DNA of 26,451 nucleotides from Candidatus Peregrinibacteria bacterium RIFCSPLOWO2_01_FULL_39_12 (GTDB lineage: Bacteria > Patescibacteriota > Gracilibacteria > UBA1369 > LOWO2-01-FULL-3), in the NCBI GenBank assembly GCA_001787455.1, contig MFXA01000026.1, positions 1 to 26,451 on the forward strand, given 5' to 3'. Made by a program: the position numbers and the translations under genes. Below, piece after piece: positions 4,245-17,985 of the stretch. Under the pieces are notes generated by a model. That model searched no databases and was not told the DNA's origin. It saw only the letters and a program-made list of their open reading frames with translations. Position 1 is the stretch's first letter. The number at the start of each line of letters is the position of its first letter.

Positions 4245-6005
4245 TCACCCCACCGCATCCAAATAACATTTCTCGCAGTACACAGGTTCAATCCTTTTTG
4301 GATTATATGTCGTCATAATATCAGCACTGCATTTGCCGCACTTTCTTTTCCAAAGAGCCCAAGGATTTCTTAAAGCCATCCTTTCTTTATGCCTTTGACT
4401 CGGGGATTTTCTCGGGATTGGAAGATTCTTCATCTTCAAAAATTTCAATTCCTGCGGAATAATTTTATATGGTTTCTTTGTTGTCTCACAAACTAAAATT
4501 TGCTTGCAGATATCCTCATCAGCTTCCTTCTCATCATCAGGGATTTTGGATTCCGGTCCACTGTACGTTTTGTCAGTTTCATCATCAAACCACTTCCATC
4601 CTCTCTTCAAAACTTCTTCCTTCTTAAAAGGAAAATACTCATACGCAACACTCTCATTATAAGCATACGCAGACAAATTAATCGGGAAAAATTCACCCCA
4701 TTGTTTATTTTTAAGCTCGGCTTCACTCGAACTGGCATAGCCAGATTCTCGTTCGCCTACGCGCTCGCCCCGTAGGCTCGCAACTTTCCCTCCCATATGT
4801 CGAACTATTCGCGGAACAAGTTCTTCATACTCCTCCTTCGTATATTGCTTATTCAAAATACAATATTTCTTATGCCTAAGCGCAATACAGCCAAACAAGT
4901 TTTGACTATTCAAACACAGTTCCGAGTAATAAATATCACTGTTATTTTCCCAACAGCCGGAACAAAAATGACAATTGACCATGTTATACGCAGAACTTGC
5001 CATTTCATGGCACCTTTCACTGCCGGTCCCACCGACAAAATCCCAATCGTAACAATCTTTCGCTTTCCAGCAATTAATCATGTACTTGCAATCCTCCAGC
5101 CCAAAACCGCTATAACATTGATAAGCGTTTCTGCAATCTTTCAAATAATCCCCTAAAGAATTTTCACAATTCACAATTTCCAGATACTTTCGCGGCTGTT
5201 TCTGCAAAAATTCTTCATATTTTTTCTTAAATTCAACAAAACCGCTGTATGTATTTAATTTAAGCTCCAATTTTTTCTTCAGAAAATTTTCGCGGCCGGC
5301 GCATTGCTCATTAAAAATACAAAATTTCTTATTCCTCAAATTCGCACAGCCCATGCAATCATTGCATCCAATCATGTTATAGCACATATACAAATCTCCA
5401 GAATTTATACATTTATGCGAGAAGTTGCAGTTATTGCATTTTTGGATATCGAAACACCCGTAACAATCAATCGAATCGTAAGTGTAATCACAGTCAAAAC
5501 AACGATAATTTCTGTCCGCAAAACGAAGATAGCAACAATCCTCATCCTCATCAGCTGTAAAAACAAGATAACAATTTTTATCGTTCATCGCCAAGTTACA
5601 ATAATCACTGTTTTCATTGTTAATATTATTCAGATTCATTCTCGGCACCTGTAATTGCAGCTCTTTATACTGCTCAAAAAACGACTTATTAAAATCAAAA
5701 TCCTGCCCGAAATCCACAGGATTCCACGAATCGCTCCACCAAATATGTTGATCATAAATTTTGTAAGGCTTATCCGGAGAATACATGGAAATAATTTGCT
5801 TACCCGAACTGTCGCACTTTCTATGGTACAAATTTATTTCATTGCGGAAAGCAAGCCTTTTTTGATGCCTGCATGCGAAGCACAAAGTGGGAACGGGCAT
5901 CTCAAGCTTTTTACCGCCAATAGCAGGCGAAATCATTTGATAAAACTTTAAATCTTCGGCACCAATCGAAAACTGATTTTTACAATTCTTACAGGTAGAG
6001 TTCAT
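4245..6005 (-). CDS. Cys-rich CPR-type hypothetical protein (paralog 2) carrying an in-frame GC-rich insert
   Basis: 586-aa ORF homologous along its length to 201..1847, with extra segment GGKVASLRGERVGERESGYASSSEAEL. Confidence 0.85.
   Translation of the reverse strand: MNSTCKNCKNQFSIGAEDLKFYQMISPAIGGKKLEMPVPTLCFACRHQKRLAFRNEINLYHRKCDSSGKQIISMYSPDKPYKIYDQHIWWSDSWNPVDFGQDFDFNKSFFEQYKELQLQVPRMNLNNINNENSDYCNLAMNDKNCYLVFTADEDEDCCYLRFADRNYRCFDCDYTYDSIDCYGCFDIQKCNNCNFSHKCINSGDLYMCYNMIGCNDCMGCANLRNKKFCIFNEQCAGRENFLKKKLELKLNTYSGFVEFKKKYEEFLQKQPRKYLEIVNCENSLGDYLKDCRNAYQCYSGFGLEDCKYMINCWKAKDCYDWDFVGGTGSERCHEMASSAYNMVNCHFCSGCWENNSDIYYSELCLNSQNLFGCIALRHKKYCILNKQYTKEEYEELVPRIVRHMGGKVASLRGERVGERESGYASSSEAELKNKQWGEFFPINLSAYAYNESVAYEYFPFKKEEVLKRGWKWFDDETDKTYSGPESKIPDDEKEADEDICKQILVCETTKKPYKIIPQELKFLKMKNLPIPRKSPSQRHKERMALRNPWALWKRKCGKCSADIMTTYNPKRIEPVYCEKCYLDAVG
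4713..4793. repeat. GC-rich palindromic (REP-like) segment inside a CDS
   Basis: Hairpins GCCTACG(4755-61)/CGTAGGC(4771-77) and CTGGC(4732-36)/GCCAG(4740-44). About 63% GC over 4715-4784 by hand count. Absent from paralog 1. Confidence 0.6.
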
Positions 6006-9091: not shown

Positions 9092-11413
9092 TTAAAACTT
9101 CACCTTAAACCTCTTCAGCCTAAGCGCATTCAACACGACACTTATCGAAGAAAAAGCCATTGCACCCGCAGAAAAAATAGGGCTCAACAGCCCGAAAGCG
9201 GCTACCGGCACACCAACCGTATTATAAATAAACGCCCAAAAAAGATTTTGTTTGATATTTCGCAAAGTCGCAATCGAAAGCTCGATAGACTCAACAGCCT
9301 TCATCAAATCCCCCTTCACAAGCACTACATCGCCGGACTCAATAGCTATATCCGTTCCGGTACCCATTGCAATCCCAACATCTGCGGTCGCAAGAGCAGG
9401 AGCATCATTTATTCCATCGCCGATCATCGCCACAAACTCCCCCGCGCTTTGAAGCTCCTTCACTTTTTTGGTTTTGCCTTCCGGAGTAATTTGAGCGAAC
9501 ACATTATCGATTCCAACATTTTTGGCGATACTTTGAGCGACAGCGGGATTATCTCCCGTCATCATCAAAGTTTTAATATTCCTTGCATGCAGTAATTTAA
9601 CTGCACCGCCGGCACCCTCTTTTTCTCTGTCCTGAAGCGCAAAAACTCCACGCTCACGACCGTCAATTGCAAAATACAAAACGGTTTTACCGTCTTTTTC
9701 TTTCTCCTCGGCCTGCGAATCCAGCTCGGCGCATCTTACAACTTTTTTATCATGCAAAAATTTCTTGCTGCCAATAAGAACTTCCGTACCACCAACAACA
9801 CCAAAAATACCCTTGCCGATTACGGCTTCCGCACCTTTAACTTTCACAAATTCAACGGAAAAATCCAAAGCATAAGAAACAACGGCCTTGGCTAAAGGAT
9901 GCTCGGAATTGTGTTCAAGCGAGGAAACAAACTGCAAAACTTTTTCCCTGTATCCGGATTTATCTTTCGGAGAAACCCCGTCCAGCTCAAATTTTTTATA
10001 AGAACTTTCCGGAACATCGTACAAAACAAAATCCGTCACTTTCGGCTTGCCTTCGGTAATTGTCCCTGTCTTATCAAAACAAATAACAGTAATTTTGTGC
10101 ATTTTTTCCAAACTGTCGGCTTTTTTGATCAAGATACCCATTTGCGCACCGCGTCCGGAACCCACAACTATAGAAACCGGCGTCGCAAGCCCAAGAGCGC
10201 ACGGACAAGCGATAATTAAAACAGCAACAGCGGGAATAATTGAAGTAGCAACATCACCGCTTACATACCACCATCCCAAAAACGCAAGCACGGCAATTAA
10301 AATAACAATCCATACAAAATATTGCGATACGCGGTCAACAAGTTTTTGGATGGGAGCTTTGCTCATTTGCGCCATTTCGACAAGCTTAACCATTTGAGAA
10401 AGGACAGTATCGCTGCCAATTTTTTTCGCCTGCATTACAAAAGAAGTATTGCCGTTAACGGTTGCACCTATAACACTGTCGCCATCTTTTTTATCAACAG
10501 GCATGCTTTCTCCGGTAATCATGGACTCATCAATAGTCGCAGCACCTTCGAAAATCACACCGTCAACCGGAATTTTTTCTCCCGGCTTAACCATAAGCCT
10601 GTCCCCTATTTGCACATCCTTTATCGGCACATCTTTAAAATGCCCGCCGGAAGAAGCAACATGGGCAAATTTAGCCTGAAGCCCGACAAGTTTTCGTATA
10701 GCTTCGGAAGCGCTACCTTTTGCTTTCGCTTCAAGATAATGCCCTAGCGCGACAAAAGTCGTAATAATGGCGGAATCCATAAAATACTCAGCCCCGCTCA
10801 TCGAATACACAGTATTATAAGTGGAATAAATAAAAGCCGCTCCGACTCCAACCGCAACAAGAGTACTCATATTCGGTCTTCCTTTAAAAATAAAAGGCGG
10901 AATTCCCTGAACAAAAAACTCCTTGCCTGTGTACATAAGAATAAAAAGCGTAACAACAAGCATTGTGTAATGCTCGTACTTAAAATCAATCGCAAAAGCC
11001 AACATCAAAACAAAAATACTGGCAACCATACCAAACACAACTTTATAAAACCTTCTCTTTATATCTTTTTTGCTTTCCATTTGCATATGATCGTGCTCGC
11101 CGGAACCACCATCACCGCCGCCATCACCGTGAACACCCATATCATGACCACCATGACCGCCATGCCCGCTATTCCCTTCATCACTGCCGCCCGAATCCTC
11201 CAATAAATAAGCATGATAACCCGTATCTTTAATTTGCTTAACAATATCTTCCGGAGTAAGCAAAGCATCGTCATACATAACTTCAGCTTTTTCAGCGGCG
11301 AAATTTACAGCTATATGATGAACTCCCTTCATCTTCGAAACATCTTTTTCAATATGAAGAACGCATGAGCCGCAATTCATATCCGTAATTTTGAAAATTT
11401 TCGTTATATGCAT
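9092..11413 (-). CDS. copA: Cu(I)-translocating P1B-1 type ATPase
   Basis: N-terminal MNCGSC HMA domain, [24 protein letters not shown] and MAFSS motifs. Confidence 0.92.
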
Positions 11414-11416
11414 AAT

Positions 11417-11917
11417 TTAACAGCAGTTATCCAATTTTTTAATTATAGAAGAATCTTTGCCAGATTTTTCCTGCTCCTTAACAACATCGTCATGGGTTGT
11501 TCCCTGGAAAAGAAACGTAGCCAAAGAAACCAAAATAACAAACAAAACAGCGATCATCAAAACCCAGTCAAACTTTTTTTCAAGGAGATTAAAAACAAAA
11601 TAAAATCCCGAAATAACAATCGCCAAACGCACAAACCAAAAATTCCTTATACTTCGTTTTTTATAAGCAGCCTCCATTTTATACATAAAACCGGCGACAC
11701 TCATCCCCATCAAAATACCAAGCGAAATCAATGACACACTTTCTCCAATCAGCCACAAAACCAACAAAATAATCCAAGTTGCACTCACCGAGGCGCAAAC
11801 AGCGCAAACATTAAACGGCAGTTTTGGCTGGATATATGGCTTTATAAACGCAACAAAAAAATAAATAACGGGAATTGTGATAAGAGGAATTAAATTTTGT
11901 TCAAGCAAGATACTCAT
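11417..11917 (-). CDS. membrane protein with CAVC motif and C-terminal CC; start moved to ATG 11917
   Basis: The ORF track start (11950) overlaps the upstream gene, while ATG 11917 lies 1 nt after its TAG. Multiple hydrophobic helices; ends LDNCC. Confidence 0.75.
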   Translation of the reverse strand: MSILLEQNLIPLITIPVIYFFVAFIKPYIQPKLPFNVCAVCASVSATWIILLVLWLIGESVSLISLGILMGMSVAGFMYKMEAAYKKRSIRNFWFVRLAIVISGFYFVFNLLEKKFDWVLMIAVLFVILVSLATFLFQGTTHDDVVKEQEKSGKDSSIIKKLDNCC

Positions 11918-11918
11918 A

Positions 11919-13532
11919 CTAGGTAAAAAATTTAAGAATAATAACTCCAAGAGCGATCATGGTTAGCCCGATAATAATTTTAGACATTTTGGATTCCTTG
12001 CGCTCCCATTCCTGAAGTTTTTCAGTAGCTTTCGCATTGCCGGCAAGAGCGAGAATAATTAAAAGAGGCGAAATGAATATAAAATTATACCAAATCATCC
12101 ACCAAAGCCCCTGCACATAAGTTTGCGAAGAAGCCAAAAGCCCGATAACAGCGACATATATTCCTCCGGAACAAGGGAAAGTGCAAAGTCCGACTATAAA
12201 TCCTCCGATAAAAGCCGCCGGAACCGTAGCTTTATAAAGCCACTTTTCAAGAACAGCCTTTGTATTTAAAGGAATTCTTAAACGGATTGGAAACCTCGGA
12301 AACACAATCCCAAGAAGCTGGATAATACCAAGTCCGATAACAAGATAAGAGCCGATATAAGCCATTAAATGAGGCGCCCCACTAATCACTATCGCCTGCG
12401 CGATCCCTATTCCAATCAAAAAATACGCAAGATAAATGGCAAAAATATACACAAGACTAACTTTCCATATACTTCGCGTTGTTTTTTTTATGGAAAACAA
12501 AAACGCTATAAAGAAAAGTAAAACGGCGATAGCGCAGGGATTTATTCCGTCCAAAAACGCACTTGAAGTAATAAGCGCAAAAAACCCCCAAAATCCGGAA
12601 GGAGTGGATAAAATTTGATCCCCACCCCAAGTTTTATGCCAGTCCAGATAAGTTGTAATAGGCTCGTCAATAGGATATGTTTTCACTTCGCCTTTAAAAT
12701 CCCATACCTTGTAATTTTCGGCATGCCCGTGCATTTCATCCTGATAAACAAGAATTTTCTCATATTCATCCGGATGCTCCAGCAAATACCGCATTATTTC
12801 TTCGGGAACATGCCCGCCGATTAGAAGTTTGTCATCCACAAAAGCCTCAATATGGCTTTGCAAATCAAACGGAACATTCCATTTTTCATTATATTCATTA
12901 AGGGTTTGACGGTTTTCCTTCTCATTTATATAGTCTTTATTTAAAACGGAAAATCCATATTCTCCGAAGAAAACGGGATATGTTTGCATGACAAGCTCGC
13001 CGCAATCTTTGCAGGCTTCGTTGAAGAAAACAACAACAGATTTATCACTGAAACCTTTGCCGGCTTCACCTGAGCCGGAATTGCCGGAAACTTCCCTGAC
13101 AACATTTCCCATCAATTCAATCGCAACTTCCGGATTCTCCGGATCGGAAGTTTTTAAATAAATCTCTCTTACAATCTCCCCTGATTGATCGGCATGAGCG
13201 TTTGGATCAAAAGTAACAACCATTTCCCTTTTGGAAGAAGCCGGCATATCGGACAAATCCATTTTCGCAACAGTGCACCCGCAGCTTGTCGAAAGCTTGT
13301 TGATTTTAAGAATTTCACCGCCAACATTTTCAACCGTAAAAGTGGTGGACACCAATCCTTTTTCCGGATATACATCCCCAAAATCATAAGTTAAAGGAGA
13401 AACCTTAACTGACCCGCCGCTGTATAGCTCCGCCGGAGGCGGAGTGACCGAAGCGTGTGCGACATGAGTAGTCGAAAAAACAATAACAAACAAAAAAGAC
13501 ATCAAAATCCACTTTTTAAAACCCTTAATCAT
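11919..13532 (-). CDS. fusion: signal peptide + DUF1573-like domain + thioredoxin-like CxxC domain + CcdA/DsbD-type membrane domain
   Basis: TSCGCT/FDPNAH; CKDC...GGHVP; DGINPCA and FPCSGG in a 6-TM C-terminal domain (the CcdA catalytic Cys pair). Confidence 0.75.
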   Translation of the reverse strand: MIKGFKKWILMSFLFVIVFSTTHVAHASVTPPPAELYSGGSVKVSPLTYDFGDVYPEKGLVSTTFTVENVGGEILKINKLSTSCGCTVAKMDLSDMPASSKREMVVTFDPNAHADQSGEIVREIYLKTSDPENPEVAIELMGNVVREVSGNSGSGEAGKGFSDKSVVVFFNEACKDCGELVMQTYPVFFGEYGFSVLNKDYINEKENRQTLNEYNEKWNVPFDLQSHIEAFVDDKLLIGGHVPEEIMRYLLEHPDEYEKILVYQDEMHGHAENYKVWDFKGEVKTYPIDEPITTYLDWHKTWGGDQILSTPSGFWGFFALITSSAFLDGINPCAIAVLLFFIAFLFSIKKTTRSIWKVSLVYIFAIYLAYFLIGIGIAQAIVISGAPHLMAYIGSYLVIGLGIIQLLGIVFPRFPIRLRIPLNTKAVLEKWLYKATVPAAFIGGFIVGLCTFPCSGGIYVAVIGLLASSQTYVQGLWWMIWYNFIFISPLLIILALAGNAKATEKLQEWERKESKMSKIIIGLTMIALGVIILKFFT

Positions 13533-13558: not shown

Positions 13559-13927
13559 TTACTTGGTAATTCCCATATGCTCTTGCATCTTGTCCAGCAT
13601 ATAAGATTTCCATTGATCGGAAGTTGCAAGTCCGCTGACATCGTCATCGTTCAAATCATTCATCATGGATTCCCAGTTGTAAGCCTTGCCTCCATACGTA
13701 CCGCCCATCATTGACCGCATGCCTTTCCAACCCCAGCCCGCAGTTAAAAGAACACCAATAATACCAATAACCGCAAGCCAAAGAGTCCAGTCCTTAAGCT
13801 CCTTTTCTTTCATAAACTTTATCGCCCAAACAACCAAAAAAACCACGGCGAGAAAAATAATAACACCAAAAACCAGATGAAAATTCCACCAAAAGGCGGA
13901 ACCGTACAGAGAACTTGTATTCATCAT
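13559..13927 (-). CDS. hypothetical membrane protein with a Met-rich C-terminal tail
   Basis: 122 aa, two TM helices followed by MRSMMGG...ESMMND...YMLDKMQEHMG. Confidence 0.75.
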   Translation of the reverse strand: MMNTSSLYGSAFWWNFHLVFGVIIFLAVVFLVVWAIKFMKEKELKDWTLWLAVIGIIGVLLTAGWGWKGMRSMMGGTYGGKAYNWESMMNDLNDDDVSGLATSDQWKSYMLDKMQEHMGITK

Positions 13928-13959
13928 AATAAGATAGATTAAAAAAATAAATTTATATG

Positions 13960-14808
13960 TTATTTTGCAGATTCTTGGATAGGTTCAACAACTTTTCCGC
14001 TTTTTAAATCTTTATACGCAAGACCCATCGCATCAAGCTTGCGCAAAACAAAACTACCATCGCTTTCTATGCTTCCGACACTGCCCCATGCAGAAACAAA
14101 TTGCTCATAATATTTTGCATCCGCAGACAAAATCATGGTGGGAACACTCGTAACATTGTATTTTTCAACAAGCTCATTTCCTGTATCGTCGGAAACATCA
14201 ACAAGAGATTCCTTTGCAACATAAATGCCAAACTTTGAAAGGATAGGTTTTTGCACGGAAAGAACATCGTAACAGTTTTTACAACCGTCATCGACAATAA
14301 ACGTAACGGTAACTTCGCCAAACATTTTACCGGAATCCAAATCAAAATATGGAGGAACAGCCTGCTCCATAACAAGCGCATCCTCATCTACAACAACACC
14401 GCCCAACTTTTTAACGGATTCTGAAAAAGAGGTTTTTATTTTCTCATCAGATTCAAAAATCAAAACAGGCAGTTTTTTTATCGCATATTTTTTAATCAAT
14501 TCTTTGGCATCCTCATCGGCATAAGACATTTGAATATCCTCGGAAATTTCCACATTTTTAGATGCAAAATTGCTTTTGACAACATCCAAAGTTTTACATT
14601 TATCGCAACCAACAGGGGAAATTAAAGTAAGTGCACCCTCCTGCGGACGGGCAAGGTCAAGAGCTTCATCCAATTTCCCATCCACAATAAAAGTAAACAG
14701 TCCCATCGTCACAACATTTACAGCAAGAACAACAATAAGGATAAAAACAAGCGCATTGGAAAAACCCAAAACAGCGCGATTTTTGATAGATTTTTGCATC
14801 TCATTCAT
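13960..14808 (-). CDS. membrane-anchored protein with two tandem thioredoxin-like CxxC domains
   Basis: N-terminal TM; CDKC...KYAIKKLPVLIF and CKNC...KYNVTSVPTMIL repeated modules. Confidence 0.7.
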   Translation of the reverse strand: MNEMQKSIKNRAVLGFSNALVFILIVVLAVNVVTMGLFTFIVDGKLDEALDLARPQEGALTLISPVGCDKCKTLDVVKSNFASKNVEISEDIQMSYADEDAKELIKKYAIKKLPVLIFESDEKIKTSFSESVKKLGGVVVDEDALVMEQAVPPYFDLDSGKMFGEVTVTFIVDDGCKNCYDVLSVQKPILSKFGIYVAKESLVDVSDDTGNELVEKYNVTSVPTMILSADAKYYEQFVSAWGSVGSIESDGSFVLRKLDAMGLAYKDLKSGKVVEPIQESAK

Positions 14809-14838
14809 AAGTTATTTATTATTTTATATTGCATCTAA

Positions 14839-15012
14839 TTAACATCCTCCCACCATATCTGGAGCACCACTAGAAGCCGCCGCGGCTGATCCTCCAAAAG
14901 ATATGTTCGCTTCACCAAGCCTGCTTGTTAAATCAAAAAGCAGATAAGTTTGGTAAGAAAGAACCAAAACCGACGCTATAATGACCGATAAAAAAACTTT
15001 TGATGATACCAT
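14839..15012 (-). CDS. 57-aa membrane-anchored peptide ending PDMVGGC; below the ORF-track cutoff
   Basis: Manual translation: MVSSKVFLSVIIASVLVLSYQTYLLFDLTSRLGEANISFGGSAAAASSGAPDMVGGC*. It fills the gap between two co-oriented genes. Confidence 0.8.
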   Translation of the reverse strand: MVSSKVFLSVIIASVLVLSYQTYLLFDLTSRLGEANISFGGSAAAASSGAPDMVGGC

Positions 15013-15044
15013 ATATAAATTTTGTTAAATATTAGGGAACCTCT

Positions 15045-16214
15045 TTAACATCCTCCAACCATATCGGGACTTTTATCGTAAGGAACAAAACCGGATTTTT
15101 TAGCCTCTTTTTGCAAATCTGCAAATTCTTTCTTGTCCAAATACTGTGTAAGATAACGGATATCAGCGGTAAATTTTGAGATGTCCCCCGCCAATTCCTT
15201 TGCCATGCGCTCCTGCATTTGTTTCGGGAAATACAGCCCTTTTTGCCTCATAAGTTCATAAGCGATATCGGCATCGCTCATTTCCGGATAATTTCTAATC
15301 AAATAAGCGGCAGTCCCCCTCATGGCGATAGAGTGCGCACATCCGCATGTTGGAGAACCGTCTTCCCTGACAAGAGTTATAACGCCGCAACAAAATTCAC
15401 ATGTAACGGTAGGTTCGGTCCCGATCTTTATATAACGCTTCAGCTCCGTATCATTGAGATCAATAGGCGCGGAACCCTGCATAGGAGCCATTTTCGACAA
15501 CTTCCCGATTGAAGTGTTTATTGCGGAAACATTCGAAAAATCCAATCCCAGCTCAGCACCATAAAAAGGATTGACAGTTGGCGTAACAAGAACAGCTATA
15601 TCACGGGAAAATTCTCCGGAAAGCTCAATTTCTTTCCCGCTCTGACCGCCCATAAGCTTTTCGCCAAGCTTAACAGCGAGCACTTGGTTGTTCATAAACA
15701 AAATAGCGACAACGACAATCAAAAGAGTATTTAAAAAATGTGATTTATCAACAGGATGAATTTTTTCATCTTCAAATCTTTCCAATAAAATCAAAATAGC
15801 TACAAGAATTAAAATTCCTGCGACTAATCGGAACCACCAAAAATAAGGAGATACAACCGCAAGCGTGGCGGACATCCCAAAATATGACAAGAAAAATACC
15901 GGACACACCGGACAAAGAAGCGTAAACAAAGAAGTTAAGCCGGACAAAGAACCGATTGCACAAGAAGCAACTCGAGCCCGCCTTACAATAATAAACAGCG
16001 CAACACCGAACCCGAAGAAAACGGAAAAGAAACCAACAAAAAGCATATCAAAAACCGTAACAGGATTCATATAGGCGATTCCATAATTAAAAAACGGGAT
16101 AGTCCAAAGTCCCAGAAAAAAAGTTTGCAAAGCGAACATCACAAACCCGCTGATGATAAGTATCAGCCAAAACCGCAAGCTCGATATAAGTATTTTTAAT
16201 TTATGCATGTACAT
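15045..16214 (-). CDS. membrane protein with CPVCP, CEFCCG and CGCAHS motifs, ending PDMVGGC
   Basis: 389 aa: about 5 N-terminal TM helices, then a soluble Cys-rich domain. Confidence 0.8.
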   Translation of the reverse strand: MYMHKLKILISSLRFWLILIISGFVMFALQTFFLGLWTIPFFNYGIAYMNPVTVFDMLFVGFFSVFFGFGVALFIIVRRARVASCAIGSLSGLTSLFTLLCPVCPVFFLSYFGMSATLAVVSPYFWWFRLVAGILILVAILILLERFEDEKIHPVDKSHFLNTLLIVVVAILFMNNQVLAVKLGEKLMGGQSGKEIELSGEFSRDIAVLVTPTVNPFYGAELGLDFSNVSAINTSIGKLSKMAPMQGSAPIDLNDTELKRYIKIGTEPTVTCEFCCGVITLVREDGSPTCGCAHSIAMRGTAAYLIRNYPEMSDADIAYELMRQKGLYFPKQMQERMAKELAGDISKFTADIRYLTQYLDKKEFADLQKEAKKSGFVPYDKSPDMVGGC

Positions 16215-16647
16215 GTTCTTTTATACAACAAGCCATATTTTTATGTTGATTCAACTTTACCATCATATATATAACTCCACCAATATTTATCAAAACACCA
16301 AAGCCCAAAAACCAATTTTGATAATTCATAAAAGAAGCAAAACCGATAAGACCGAGAAAAGGAAAAATATTCACAAGATAATGAGCACAGCACGCGACCA
16401 TAGCGCCAATATTTACACCAGCCGAAGCTCCAACCATTTTTAAACTGTTTTCTCGTATAACCAGCCTGATTTTTTGGAAGAAATACATCTGCAAAGCAAA
16501 TCCCAGCAAAAGCGGTATAATTAAAAACCATTTATCCACAAAAAACTCCAGGGGATAAAACTTGTCAAAAGTCGTCAAAAAAAGAATCAAATAATAAAAC
16601 CCTGTCATCCCCGCTAAACTAATCGCGCTAAAAATATACGGACTCAC
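16201..16647 (-). CDS. small membrane protein with MVACCAH and C-terminal MACC..HVH motifs
   Basis: 148 aa (GTG start), about 4 TM helices; stop overlaps the start of the next gene. Confidence 0.75.
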   Translation of the reverse strand: MSPYIFSAISLAGMTGFYYLILFLTTFDKFYPLEFFVDKWFLIIPLLLGFALQMYFFQKIRLVIRENSLKMVGASAGVNIGAMVACCAHYLVNIFPFLGLIGFASFMNYQNWFLGFGVLINIGGVIYMMVKLNQHKNMACCIKEHVHA

Positions 16648-16665: not shown

Positions 16666-17688
16666 CTAAAAATCCAAAGTCACTTCTCCGACAGGCAAAC
16701 CGCTTATAACCAAAGGACTTGGGGATGTACCTCCCTGAAAAGTTAAAAGACCCGTTACATGATGCCCGCCGGCAGCATCAGAAAACATTTTCCAAGCAAC
16801 CGCCGCTTGTCCATCCAGCTTAGACATCAACTTATAATCAAATCCTGTTAAGTCCTCGTTATGATTATCCAGAGTCAGAACAATAAATATATCTCCACCA
16901 ACCGGATTGATATCATTCAAATCATCACCGTATTTTCCTTTAAGCTCAGAATAATTTTCAGTTGTCACACGTTCAGCCTCAAAATTTATATAATCAACTT
17001 GTTGAGATGCCTTAGTTCCGACACTATCTCCTTCAGACACTTTTTCATCAGACACTTTTTCAGTCCCAACTTCAGGCTTCCCATTAGGATACTTCGCCGC
17101 GAAATCATCCTTATAAAGAACATTTCCGGATAATGTCAGTTCGGTAACATTGCCGCTAACAACATTACCACTGTGTCCATGTGAAGCCGCCGGTTTCTTG
17201 GCATAATTCCCATTGGAAACAGAACTGGTCGTAATTGTAATAAACCTATCAATAGGACCAACCGCATCCGGACCATGCGCAAGAGGATCAAAAACAGCTT
17301 TCACGGTAAATTCTTCACCCGGAGCAACAATACCTCCCCAATTTACGGCTTCATGCATACCAAAAGCCGGGGAAGGAGTAGAATCACTCAAAGTAATTGT
17401 CGCAGTCGTGCACATGCAGGATGTATTCGCGGTTTTAATTATCAAATCGCCATCCCCGTCATTTTTAAATTTGAATAATGGCGAATCCACATTCCCTCCC
17501 TGAATATCGATATCCCCCCAGTCAAAAGTAACATTCCCGAGAGGAACAATTTTACCGCTTTCGGTTTCGTCCAATCGCGTTATATCCACAGAACCACTGG
17601 AACTGCAGGCGGTAGCAACAAAAATAGCCGAAAGGACAGCACCGCCAAATAAAATTTTTCTGGCGTGATTTTTCAAAAATGTTTTCAT
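16666..17688 (-). CDS. putative lipoprotein with a DUF1573-like domain and His-containing C-terminal domain
   Basis: Lipobox-like VATA-C; TSCMCT and FDPLAHG; C-terminal LDNHNEDL and AGGHH. Confidence 0.7.
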   Translation of the reverse strand: MKTFLKNHARKILFGGAVLSAIFVATACSSSGSVDITRLDETESGKIVPLGNVTFDWGDIDIQGGNVDSPLFKFKNDGDGDLIIKTANTSCMCTTATITLSDSTPSPAFGMHEAVNWGGIVAPGEEFTVKAVFDPLAHGPDAVGPIDRFITITTSSVSNGNYAKKPAASHGHSGNVVSGNVTELTLSGNVLYKDDFAAKYPNGKPEVGTEKVSDEKVSEGDSVGTKASQQVDYINFEAERVTTENYSELKGKYGDDLNDINPVGGDIFIVLTLDNHNEDLTGFDYKLMSKLDGQAAVAWKMFSDAAGGHHVTGLLTFQGGTSPSPLVISGLPVGEVTLDF

Positions 17689-17709: not shown

Positions 17710-17985
17710 TTATCTACCGGAAAGCTCCCATGATTTTACAATTTCCTTAATAAACTTTTGCCTTTCCACCGAATCTTTGGAAGTAAGTTTTTCCTTGGCG
17801 CAACTGTTTAAATGGCTTTCCAAAATAAGAGGACCAATCCCCTTCAATGAACCCTGAAAAGCCAAACTTTGCGTCAAAACATCCATGCAGTACTTGTCGT
17901 TTTCTATCATTCCCATAAGACCGTCAATTTGCCCTTTGGCTTTCTTCAGCCGATTTATGACTTTCGTTTTAAACGGATCAATCAT
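17710..17985 (-). CDS. csoR: CsoR/RcnR family metal-sensing repressor with a CsoR-type C-H-C signature
   Basis: NRLKKAKGQIDG...KYCMDVL...SHLNSC (Cys33, His58, Cys62). Confidence 0.85.
   Translation of the reverse strand: MIDPFKTKVINRLKKAKGQIDGLMGMIENDKYCMDVLTQSLAFQGSLKGIGPLILESHLNSCAKEKLTSKDSVERQKFIKEIVKSWELSGR

Follow-up and report, generated by a model that had tools for sequence, protein, structure and literature searches.

A C-terminal PDMVGGC tail shared by a small membrane-tethered protein and a Cys/His-rich membrane protein in a copper-linked operon of Candidatus Peregrinibacteria

Contig MFXA01000026.1 of Candidatus Peregrinibacteria bacterium RIFCSPLOWO2_01_FULL_39_12 (assembly GCA_001787455.1), an ultra-small bacterium from groundwater, was analyzed over positions 1 to 26,451, and this whole stretch of 26,451 nucleotides is referred to as the window. 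The subject of the analysis is a pair of adjacent genes on its minus strand, encoding a small protein of 57 amino acids and a large protein of 389 amino acids that end in the same seven residues, PDMVGGC. An initial annotation had drawn attention to the small open reading frame (ORF), which the gene track of the window omitted, and had proposed that the shared ending is a portable functional tag. The features of the pair are as follows.

14839..15012, minus strand: small protein, 57 amino acids, with a short N-terminus, one membrane helix, an S/A/G tether of about 30 residues and the ending PDMVGGC-COOH
14839..14862, minus strand: tail codons of the small gene (P-D-M-V-G-G-C-stop), one of the two codon series given below
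15045..16214, minus strand: large protein, 389 amino acids, with a CPxC membrane module, an anchor helix, a Cys/His-rich domain and the ending PDMVGGC-stop
15045..15068, minus strand: tail codons of the large gene (P-D-M-V-G-G-C-stop), read from the sequence
15765..16214, minus strand: N-terminal membrane module of the large protein, about 150 amino acids, with SCA and LLCPVCP motifs (hhalign comparison)
15048..15647, minus strand: soluble domain of the large protein, residues 190-389, probably extracytoplasmic (AlphaFold2 model)
15333..15401, minus strand: cluster C272-E-F-C275-C276-G ... C290-G-C292-A-H294 of the large protein (alignments of 19, 98 and 103 members)

The 57-residue ORF, with its helix, linker and PDMVGGC ending, was confirmed on the minus strand, as was the identical PDMVGGC-stop on the large gene, which lies 32 bases upstream of it. 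The hydrophobic helix of the small protein falls at about residues 5-25. The two 24-nucleotide ends read CCC GAT ATG GTT GGA GGA TGT TAA and CCA GAT ATG GTG GGA GGA TGT TAA; they are identical at 22 of 24 positions, and both differences (CCC/CCA and GTT/GTG) are synonymous, in agreement with the initial annotation. By itself this match is weak, since we estimate that identical peptides would agree at about 20 of 24 positions from codon usage, and the case for the tail pairing is therefore carried by the comparative data. A six-frame scan of the whole genome (863,781 bases, 38.6% GC, 64 contigs, 79% complete) found these two as the only ORFs ending in MVGGC.

A word-indexed search of 5.8 billion proteins with the large protein as the query returned 68 relatives, none of which carries a Pfam domain. 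Where the source was named, they belong to Magasanikbacteria, Peregrinibacteria and Paceibacterales of the candidate phyla radiation (CPR) and to a Pacearchaeota archaeon. The tail was kept in 66 of the 68 (MVGGC in 64, MIGGC or MVWGC in two) at identities down to about 29%; one other relative ends differently. When GTDB was scanned for the pattern, with one genome taken for each species, 505 species genomes from the CPR bacteria and the DPANN archaea were confirmed to encode a relative of the large protein, including Buchananbacteria, Parcubacteria, Woesearchaeota, Pacearchaeota, Nanoarchaeota and Aenigmatarchaeota. Searched with the family profile, 1.84 billion cluster representatives yielded 318 clusters at 50% identity. 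The motif is thus kept at the C-termini of homologues. Among 147 further representatives listed, 74 end in MVGGC and 28 in QVGGC, and other endings are scattered (MVG[D/S/A/E/K]C, W[V/A]G[D/E]C and M[A/I/S]GGC). The Met at position -4 is accordingly swapped for Gln in 28 of these 147, and for Trp, Phe or Ile in a few, and the listed members lacking a terminal Cys mostly resemble fragments or read-throughs. Within the tail, near-invariance is limited to Gly(-2) and the terminal Cys; even a charged residue (D, E or K) may stand in for Gly(-1).

The family is patchy within its phylum, being present in 6 of the 253 good genomes that were sampled and in neither of the two genomes of the same family; lateral transfer would fit its spread across bacteria and archaea. 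DNA nearly identical to window positions 13900-16300 was detected in seven metagenome runs on groundwater or soil, which belong to at least five studies (0.56-0.97 of sampled words), indicating that the organism or the island is widespread in groundwater and soil samples. The runs containing the sequence are all DNA metagenomes and none is an RNA run. Scans of the large and small proteins against Pfam (E ≤0.1) and NCBIfam gave no match, a PDB sequence search with the profile of the large family gave 0 matches at E ≤10, and a literature search on MVGGC found no paper using the motif in this sense within the library searched. The pair of tailed proteins is without a Pfam, NCBIfam, PDB or literature entry and the pairing is undescribed; the initial annotation, too, knew of no characterized system that uses the tail.

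The small partner was assessed in the neighborhoods of 80 related loci, whose ORFs were clustered together with those of the window for recurrent families; the loci L166, L167, L169 and L173 mentioned below lie outside this set. In 67 of the 80 loci, the large gene is immediately followed on its own strand by one or two small tailed ORFs of 54-118 amino acids. Two tailed ORFs are present in 61 loci and three in 6, and the extra ORF is always small. The small proteins share one design, in which an optional N-terminal extension precedes a single helix, and this is followed by a tether of 29-65 residues rich in S, A and G and by (L)P-x-MVGGC. None of the 75 small proteins has a Cys at or after the helix other than the terminal one, so the arm carries a single thiol and cannot be a redox pair of the CxxC type, and the description of the small protein as a minimal membrane-tethered carrier of the tag is borne out. 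Small-protein relatives were collected by scanning the loci, and a word-indexed search with the 57-residue protein returned two near-identical proteins only. In the strain variants P0216 and P0217 the changes fall mostly in the linker and MVGGC is intact; P0217 also has two conservative changes in the helix. Helix, tether and tail are thus kept while the linker sequence drifts. Judged by this conservation, the 57-residue ORF is a genuine gene.

Variations on the small partner were also seen. Twelve small proteins carry Cys/His-rich N-terminal extensions. A second type of small tailed protein occurs in eight DPANN loci (L038, L049, L058, L067, L071, L076, L079 and L080); its linker and tail are preceded by a conserved segment, W-[ST]-E-N-E-x-M-N-Y-[ED]-M-H-G-x-[VI]-P-A-R. 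Some partners of the first type begin with MDCC or MECC. At L166 (1202-1444) and L167 (3672-3914), the large protein ends in MVGDC and is followed by a Met/His-rich exported protein of 80 amino acids that has no tail, and then by a Cys-rich protein of 155 amino acids and CopA; at L166 the 80-residue protein takes the place of the small partner.

Variant tails match between the two partners of a locus. QVGGC is found on both partners in 5 loci and MAGGC on both in 2, and the rare MVGKC stands on both in L173, where synonymous differences affect 4 of the 5 tail codons. Other pairs with matching variants differ in codons for Gln, Val, Gly and Cys. This synonymous divergence indicates that the variant-tail pairs are not recent copies. 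Collectively, the retention of the tail down to about 29% identity and its pairing in 67 of 80 loci support the proposal of a portable, selected C-terminal tag, and the simplest reading of the matching tails would be that one common site reads both. A complex prediction between the tail-less large domain and the tether and tail of the small protein (score 0.14, mark 0.32) speaks neither for nor against binding.

The anatomy of the large protein was examined by profile comparison and structure prediction. Its N-terminal module aligns over 150 columns with a stand-alone GCPSCG membrane family (hhalign probability 95.6%, E 1.3e-8), which is encoded by a separate gene in 24 other loci. Since the module is fused here and separate elsewhere, the fusion ties it functionally to the Cys/His-rich domain. 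The module has a weak structural likeness to VKOR and DsbD_TM-type bundles. The AlphaFold2 model of the full-length protein, made with 98 relatives, had a predicted local distance difference test score (pLDDT) of 84.8, and the model of the soluble domain, made with 103 sequences, had a pLDDT of 94.5 and a predicted template modeling score (pTM) of 0.91, with a helical fold. C272, C275, C276, C290, C292 and H294 are invariant in all three alignments of the family (19, 98 and 103 members); E273 is invariant in the 19-member alignment and at least 90% conserved in the other two. The last 20 residues of the soluble-domain model have pLDDT values of 87-89, which means that the model docks the tail onto the domain and does not treat it as disordered. 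The tail of the large protein is thus predicted to fold back on its own Cys/His-rich domain.

Foldseek searches of the PDB with the full-length and domain models gave nothing significant, and searches of AlphaFold DB clusters and the ESM Atlas gave only unnamed relatives and weak entries named as SWIM-type or rhodanese. One rhodanese-named AlphaFold DB entry aligns to the Cys/His-rich domain over residues 219-389. The best of 48,161 PDB chains for the domain model was the periplasmic CcmH of Pseudomonas (2hl7_A; Z 4.8, root-mean-square deviation 2.8 Å, 76/82 residues), with a runner-up at Z 3.7, and CcmH was the sole match to the soluble domain when the full-length model was used (Z 5.0). In the model, the invariant CxxCC lies after the first core helix, in a loop equivalent to the CxxC loop of CcmH, and a local, non-significant hhalign alignment places the CxxC motifs of the two in register. 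Homology to CcmH/NrfF (PF03918) gave no Pfam match at E ≤0.1 and was not demonstrable by profile. No protein of the CcmC/F/CcsA (PF01578) or ResB (PF05140) type was found in the genome of the window (79% complete), which argues that cytochrome maturation is not the role of the domain. PCYCGC (PF13798) homology of the domain was likewise rejected, with no match in the protein or the genome and an hhalign probability of 0.7% against the true PCYCGC proteins encoded near the pair in other loci.

The pair lies within a cluster of co-oriented genes in the order CsoR, DUF1573 protein, 148-residue protein, large protein, small protein, thioredoxin protein, 122-residue protein, 537-residue protein, CxxC...CC membrane protein and CopA. 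The neighbors in the window are as follows.

17710..17985, minus strand: CsoR-family repressor, C33/H58/C62 (Pfam Trns_repr_metal, E 2.5e-22)
16666..17688, minus strand: exported DUF1573 protein, 340 amino acids, with CxC (Pfam DUF1573, E 2.2e-9)
16201..16647, minus strand: membrane protein, 148 amino acids, with M..CC.H (family alignment)
13960..14808, minus strand: membrane-anchored double-thioredoxin protein, 282 amino acids, with CDKC and CKNC (Pfam Thioredoxin families)
13559..13927, minus strand: membrane protein, 122 amino acids, with a Met-rich exposed part (from the sequence; a singleton among the 80 loci)
11919..13532, minus strand: three-part protein, 537 amino acids, with a DUF1573 Ig-like part (CxC), a CKDC/GGHVP middle part and a CcdA/DsbD-like membrane domain
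11417..11950, minus strand: membrane protein, 177 amino acids, with CxxC and a C-terminal CC (family alignment)
9092..11413, minus strand: CopA-type P1B ATPase carrying an HMA domain (Pfam E1-E2_ATPase, Hydrolase and HMA), last gene of the co-oriented cluster

Across loci, the core runs from a regulator through the large and then the small protein to the double-thioredoxin protein. The last of these is the most constant neighbor: it is present in 56 of the 80 loci, mostly directly downstream of the pair, and its C68, C71, C176, C179 and cis-Pro P114 are invariant in 56 of 56 members, with the second cis-Pro, P223, conserved in 98%. DUF1573 proteins with CxC occur in 52 loci, the 148-residue family in 35 (M83, C86, C87 and H89 invariant), DsbD_TM/CcdA proteins in 23, the 177-residue family in 15 (C49, C52, C176 and C177 invariant), CsoR in 12 and DsbA-like proteins in 11. 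CopA lies within 8 kb in 18 of the 80 loci (22%), several-fold above chance by a rough estimate. The copper context is real: a CsoR whose C33, H58 and C62 form, as read from the sequence, the Cu(I)-type x-C-H-C signature heads the operon of the window, and CopA ends it.

The 537-residue protein matches DUF1573 (Pfam, E 5.5e-14), with weak SfLAP and ArsG matches on its membrane part; a weak DUF411/CopG match of its middle domain (12771-12845, E 0.04) falls short of the cut-off. It resembles a rearranged DsbD/ScsB, its membrane domain has two PC motifs, and it likely imports reducing power. The Met-rich 122-residue protein has no family match in Pfam. A BlaR1-like M56 peptidase is encoded directly upstream in 37 of the 80 loci and a BlaI-type repressor in 34. 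The HExxH motif is present in 37 of 37 of these peptidases, which also have an invariant Cys, placed within C-x-C..H in 13 of the 37, and the BlaI-type repressor at the cassette head (L019-L075) has no C-terminal Cys. The peptidase could be a proteolytic sensor of the stress that CsoR senses in the window.

Further observations concern the islands as a whole. A genuine PCYCGC protein (PF13798, E 9e-14) is encoded in eight DPANN loci (L038, L045, L058, L064, L067, L071, L077 and L080); its C-x-C ... H-S-R-G-L resembles CGCAHS..MRGL of the large protein, with no profile similarity. At least five further uncharacterized families with invariant Cys motifs are found in the islands, namely the 148-residue M..CC.H membrane family, a GCPSCG membrane family with a C-terminal Cys, an HCPLC membrane family, the membrane CxxC...CC family and a cytoplasmic helical family ending in CC[D/K]E. 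A rhodanese domain fused to DUF1573 was matched by Pfam at L169 (4620-5420), and a protein of 194 amino acids encoded right after the small tail gene at L027 (8881-9465) appears rhodanese-like by eye at its C-terminus. In the window, two paralogues of about 550-590 amino acids (201-1847 and 4245-6005, minus strand) are without a match in Pfam; they fall into one cluster, which is seen again in 2 of the 80 loci; palindromic inserts were noted in one of them on the initial reading of the sequence.

The pair was compared with known systems that use terminal thiols or handle copper and thiols in the envelope. In MerA, with a terminal Cys pair, and in the high-Mr thioredoxin reductase, with GC[U/C]G, a flexible thiol tail carries metal or electrons into the buried Cys site of the same enzyme. 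Unlike the window proteins, these are cytoplasmic flavoenzymes whose tails have two adjacent redox residues and which have no free-standing partner consisting of the tail only. As in Atx1/CopZ-CopA, a small carrier and a larger partner share a motif and are encoded in copper operons, but the motif of that system is MxCxxC in a folded cytoplasmic ferredoxin-like HMA domain, whereas in the window a single terminal Cys is carried by an unstructured tether that is probably extracellular. An HMA/CopZ-type chaperone was rejected, as neither protein has an HMA match in Pfam and the small protein has a single Cys.

SoxY has a strictly conserved C-terminal GGCGG arm, whose Cys is presented to the active sites of partner proteins. 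Sulfur intermediates are bound to this cysteine (PMC5336275). The likeness lies in a functional Cys beside Gly-Gly at the extreme C-terminus of an extracytoplasmic protein. Unlike in SoxY, the Cys in the window closes the chain, and nearly all members lack a trailing GG; the arm is also found on a tethered protein without a domain, the tail is predicted to be docked in cis, and the context is copper and thiol redox. The SoxY fold is Ig-like and works with SoxZ, whereas the domain of the large protein is helical; fold searches gave no SoxY and no sequence relation was seen. Among the recurrent neighbor clusters of the 80 loci, no Sox enzyme (soxAX, soxB or soxCD) was found.

CcmH is a thiol-disulfide oxidoreductase with a three-helix bundle and a CxxC in the loop after helix 1 (PMC3884852). 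CcmH/NrfF belongs to System I of cytochrome c maturation, where it acts on CXXCH apocytochromes together with a haem lyase (CcmF/NrfE), and it works downstream of DsbD/CcdA and a thioredoxin-fold relay. Like CcmH/NrfF, the large protein is membrane-anchored and probably extracytoplasmic, and its model places a CxxC in the loop after the first helix. Unlike CcmH/NrfF, the large protein lacks the LRC motif and carries one more Cys, an inserted CxCxH, a subdomain at the N-terminal side and the tail. Scs is a copper-induced envelope thiol system, in which the DsbD-like ScsB works with the thioredoxin-fold proteins ScsC and ScsD, and ScsC binds Cu(I) tightly (PMC8900818, PMC10907172). The operon of the window, with CsoR, the CcdA-like 537-residue protein and the double-CxxC thioredoxin protein, resembles Scs in design, a likeness that does not extend to homology of the tailed proteins. 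Scs has no counterpart of the Cys/His-rich domain, the terminal-Cys tail or the small tethered arm, and its hosts are Proteobacteria, which have a periplasm.

Considering the pair together with its operon, we propose that it provides a tethered single-thiol arm at the cell surface within a copper-controlled thiol system, a reading to which we give roughly an even chance and whose electron-flow direction, membrane topology, copper substrate and trans docking we infer. The small protein would cross the membrane once, with its N-terminus inside and its one Cys held outside on the flexible S/A/G tether of about 30 residues, and (L)P-x-[M/Q]-[V/A]-G-G-Cys-COOH would be the recognition element on both proteins. 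The terminal thiolate would be the working group, which may capture Cu(I) or take the oxidative hit of copper-catalyzed thiol chemistry at the surface. The Cys/His cluster in the large protein would then receive the loaded or oxidized arm, this cluster would be recycled (kept reduced) by the adjacent double-CxxC thioredoxin protein, and electrons would be carried across the membrane by the DsbD/CcdA-like 537-residue protein, in an operon that CsoR would control and that ends with CopA. The small protein would serve as an extra arm, acting in trans on the docking site of the large tail, which would explain why the tails change together. A thiol-disulfide role is supported at least as well as direct copper binding, because the most constant neighbor is the double-CxxC thioredoxin protein.

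Several observations weigh against this proposal. The topology is backed by a positive-inside signal that is only moderate (2.9 K/R before and 1.9 after the helix, with 42 of 75 small proteins clearly N-in), which gives moderate support to an inside N-terminus and an outside tail. Within a locus, 170 of 320 tail codons are identical, where local codon usage would predict 126 (z 5.2; 47% differ), and occasional gene conversion may thus contribute to the co-variation. Mismatched pairs also exist, with MVGAC/MVGGC in L169 (position -1) and MVGGC/MAGGC in L059 (position -3). The likeness of the modeled domain to CcmH is weak, a lead and not a family assignment: hhalign gave a probability of 2% against a profile of 86 gammaproteobacterial CcmH/NrfF sequences, which was built from 80 gammaproteobacterial loci, the search for NrfF homologues giving close enterobacterial sequences only. 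Most loci are headed by BlaI/M56 or helix-turn-helix regulators, not by a copper sensor. The co-occurrence with copA, csoR and ccdA that the initial annotation proposed to test was found at the level of loci, by the counts given above, but CopA is encoded in 175 of the 253 sampled good genomes (69%) and is too common in the phylum for co-occurrence at the genome level to be informative. The idea that Met and the terminal Cys form a Cu(I) chelate is also weakened, since Met(-4) is not conserved and such a chelate is therefore unlikely.

The composition of the neighborhoods would also suit a metal-free thiol-disulfide relay, the leading alternative, which we nevertheless consider rather unlikely. 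The large protein would be a CcmH-like oxidoreductase whose terminal Cys serves as resolving thiol or as shuttle, with the small protein as its dedicated substrate or a second shuttle; wrong disulfides at the surface would be repaired or prevented, and copper would be the inducing stress only, as in Scs, the precedent for copper-induced envelope thiol oxidoreductases (PMC10907172). The constancy of the double-CxxC thioredoxin protein with its invariant active sites, the DsbD_TM/CcdA and DsbA-like neighbors, the first rank of CcmH in the structural comparison, with its CxxC in the corresponding loop, and the dispensable Met(-4) are all in its favor. However, a lone Cys on a tether of 30-65 amino acids is odd as a repair substrate and no client proteins are evident; the Met/His-rich and Cys/His-rich segments of the partners point to metal contact, and the extra CC...CxCxH ligands beyond the CxxC resemble a metal site. 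We regard as distinctly improbable that the Cys is a covalent carrier arm of the SoxY type, bearing a persulfide, polysulfide or other adduct, where sulfur might precipitate or buffer copper. The Gly-Gly-Cys end does resemble the GGCGG arm, rhodanese domains occur in some loci (L027 by eye, L169 by Pfam), and a rhodanese-named entry aligns to the domain, but rhodanese is rare among the loci, no Sox, Dsr or sulfide-oxidizing enzymes were seen in the 80 neighborhoods, the metabolism of the host is minimal, and the tail is predicted to be docked and not free.

The initial annotation had also raised a processing or conjugation signal, for which no partner was found. As a sorting, processing or anchoring signal, the tail would direct a peptidase or transferase, with the neighboring M56/M48-like protease as one candidate, to remove the Cys or to link the C-terminus to lipid or the cell wall; we hold this to be very improbable. 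Its strictly C-terminal position, its invariant Gly, the M56 gene directly upstream in 37 of the 80 loci and the loosely lipobox-like V-G-G-C would suit such a signal, but both proteins are already anchored by N-terminal helices, the motif is not adjacent to a signal-peptide core, and the model docks the tail on the domain. Moreover, M56 pairs with a BlaI-type repressor, as is usual in such regulation, and the window contains neither. A lipobox, for which [LVI][ASTVI][GAS]C would have to follow a signal-peptide core immediately and have a small residue at -1, was rejected, as the motif stands 29-65 residues from the helix and position -1 accepts D, E and K, which a lipobox disallows; a sortase-type signal was considered and rejected as well. 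A ubiquitin-like or ThiS-MoaD carrier, which ends in GG, has a beta-grasp fold and depends on a cytoplasmic activating enzyme, was rejected given that the large domain is helical, the small protein is a membrane helix with a linker and no E1-like gene was found among the neighbors in the 80 loci. An origin of the shared tail by chance, or as a side effect of recent duplication or gene conversion, together with an unexpressed small ORF, could draw on the excess of within-locus codon identity and on the lack of an RNA run containing the sequence. This explanation is effectively refuted, and has next to no chance, in view of the pair in 67 of 80 loci and two domains of life, the many synonymous differences, and the retention of helix, tether and tail while the linker drifts.

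A large part of microbial diversity belongs to the CPR bacteria and DPANN archaea, whose surface biochemistry is mostly uncharted. It is doubtful, though conceivable, that the tethered arm represents a new cell-surface device, in which a tethered terminal Cys acts as a captive low-molecular-weight thiol that is loaded and unloaded at a new Cys/His-cluster domain. If this were true, copper or reducing equivalents would be moved between the surface and the membrane by way of the CPxC module and the DsbD-like importer, with no characterized counterpart, in organisms that have neither a periplasm nor respiratory quinones. The many small genes of the cassette could escape gene callers. The one terminal Cys gives a short and easily mutated handle on an apparently new copper/thiol defense, and, if the arm works as proposed, a trans-acting carrier consisting of the tail only would join the few known swinging-arm mechanisms.

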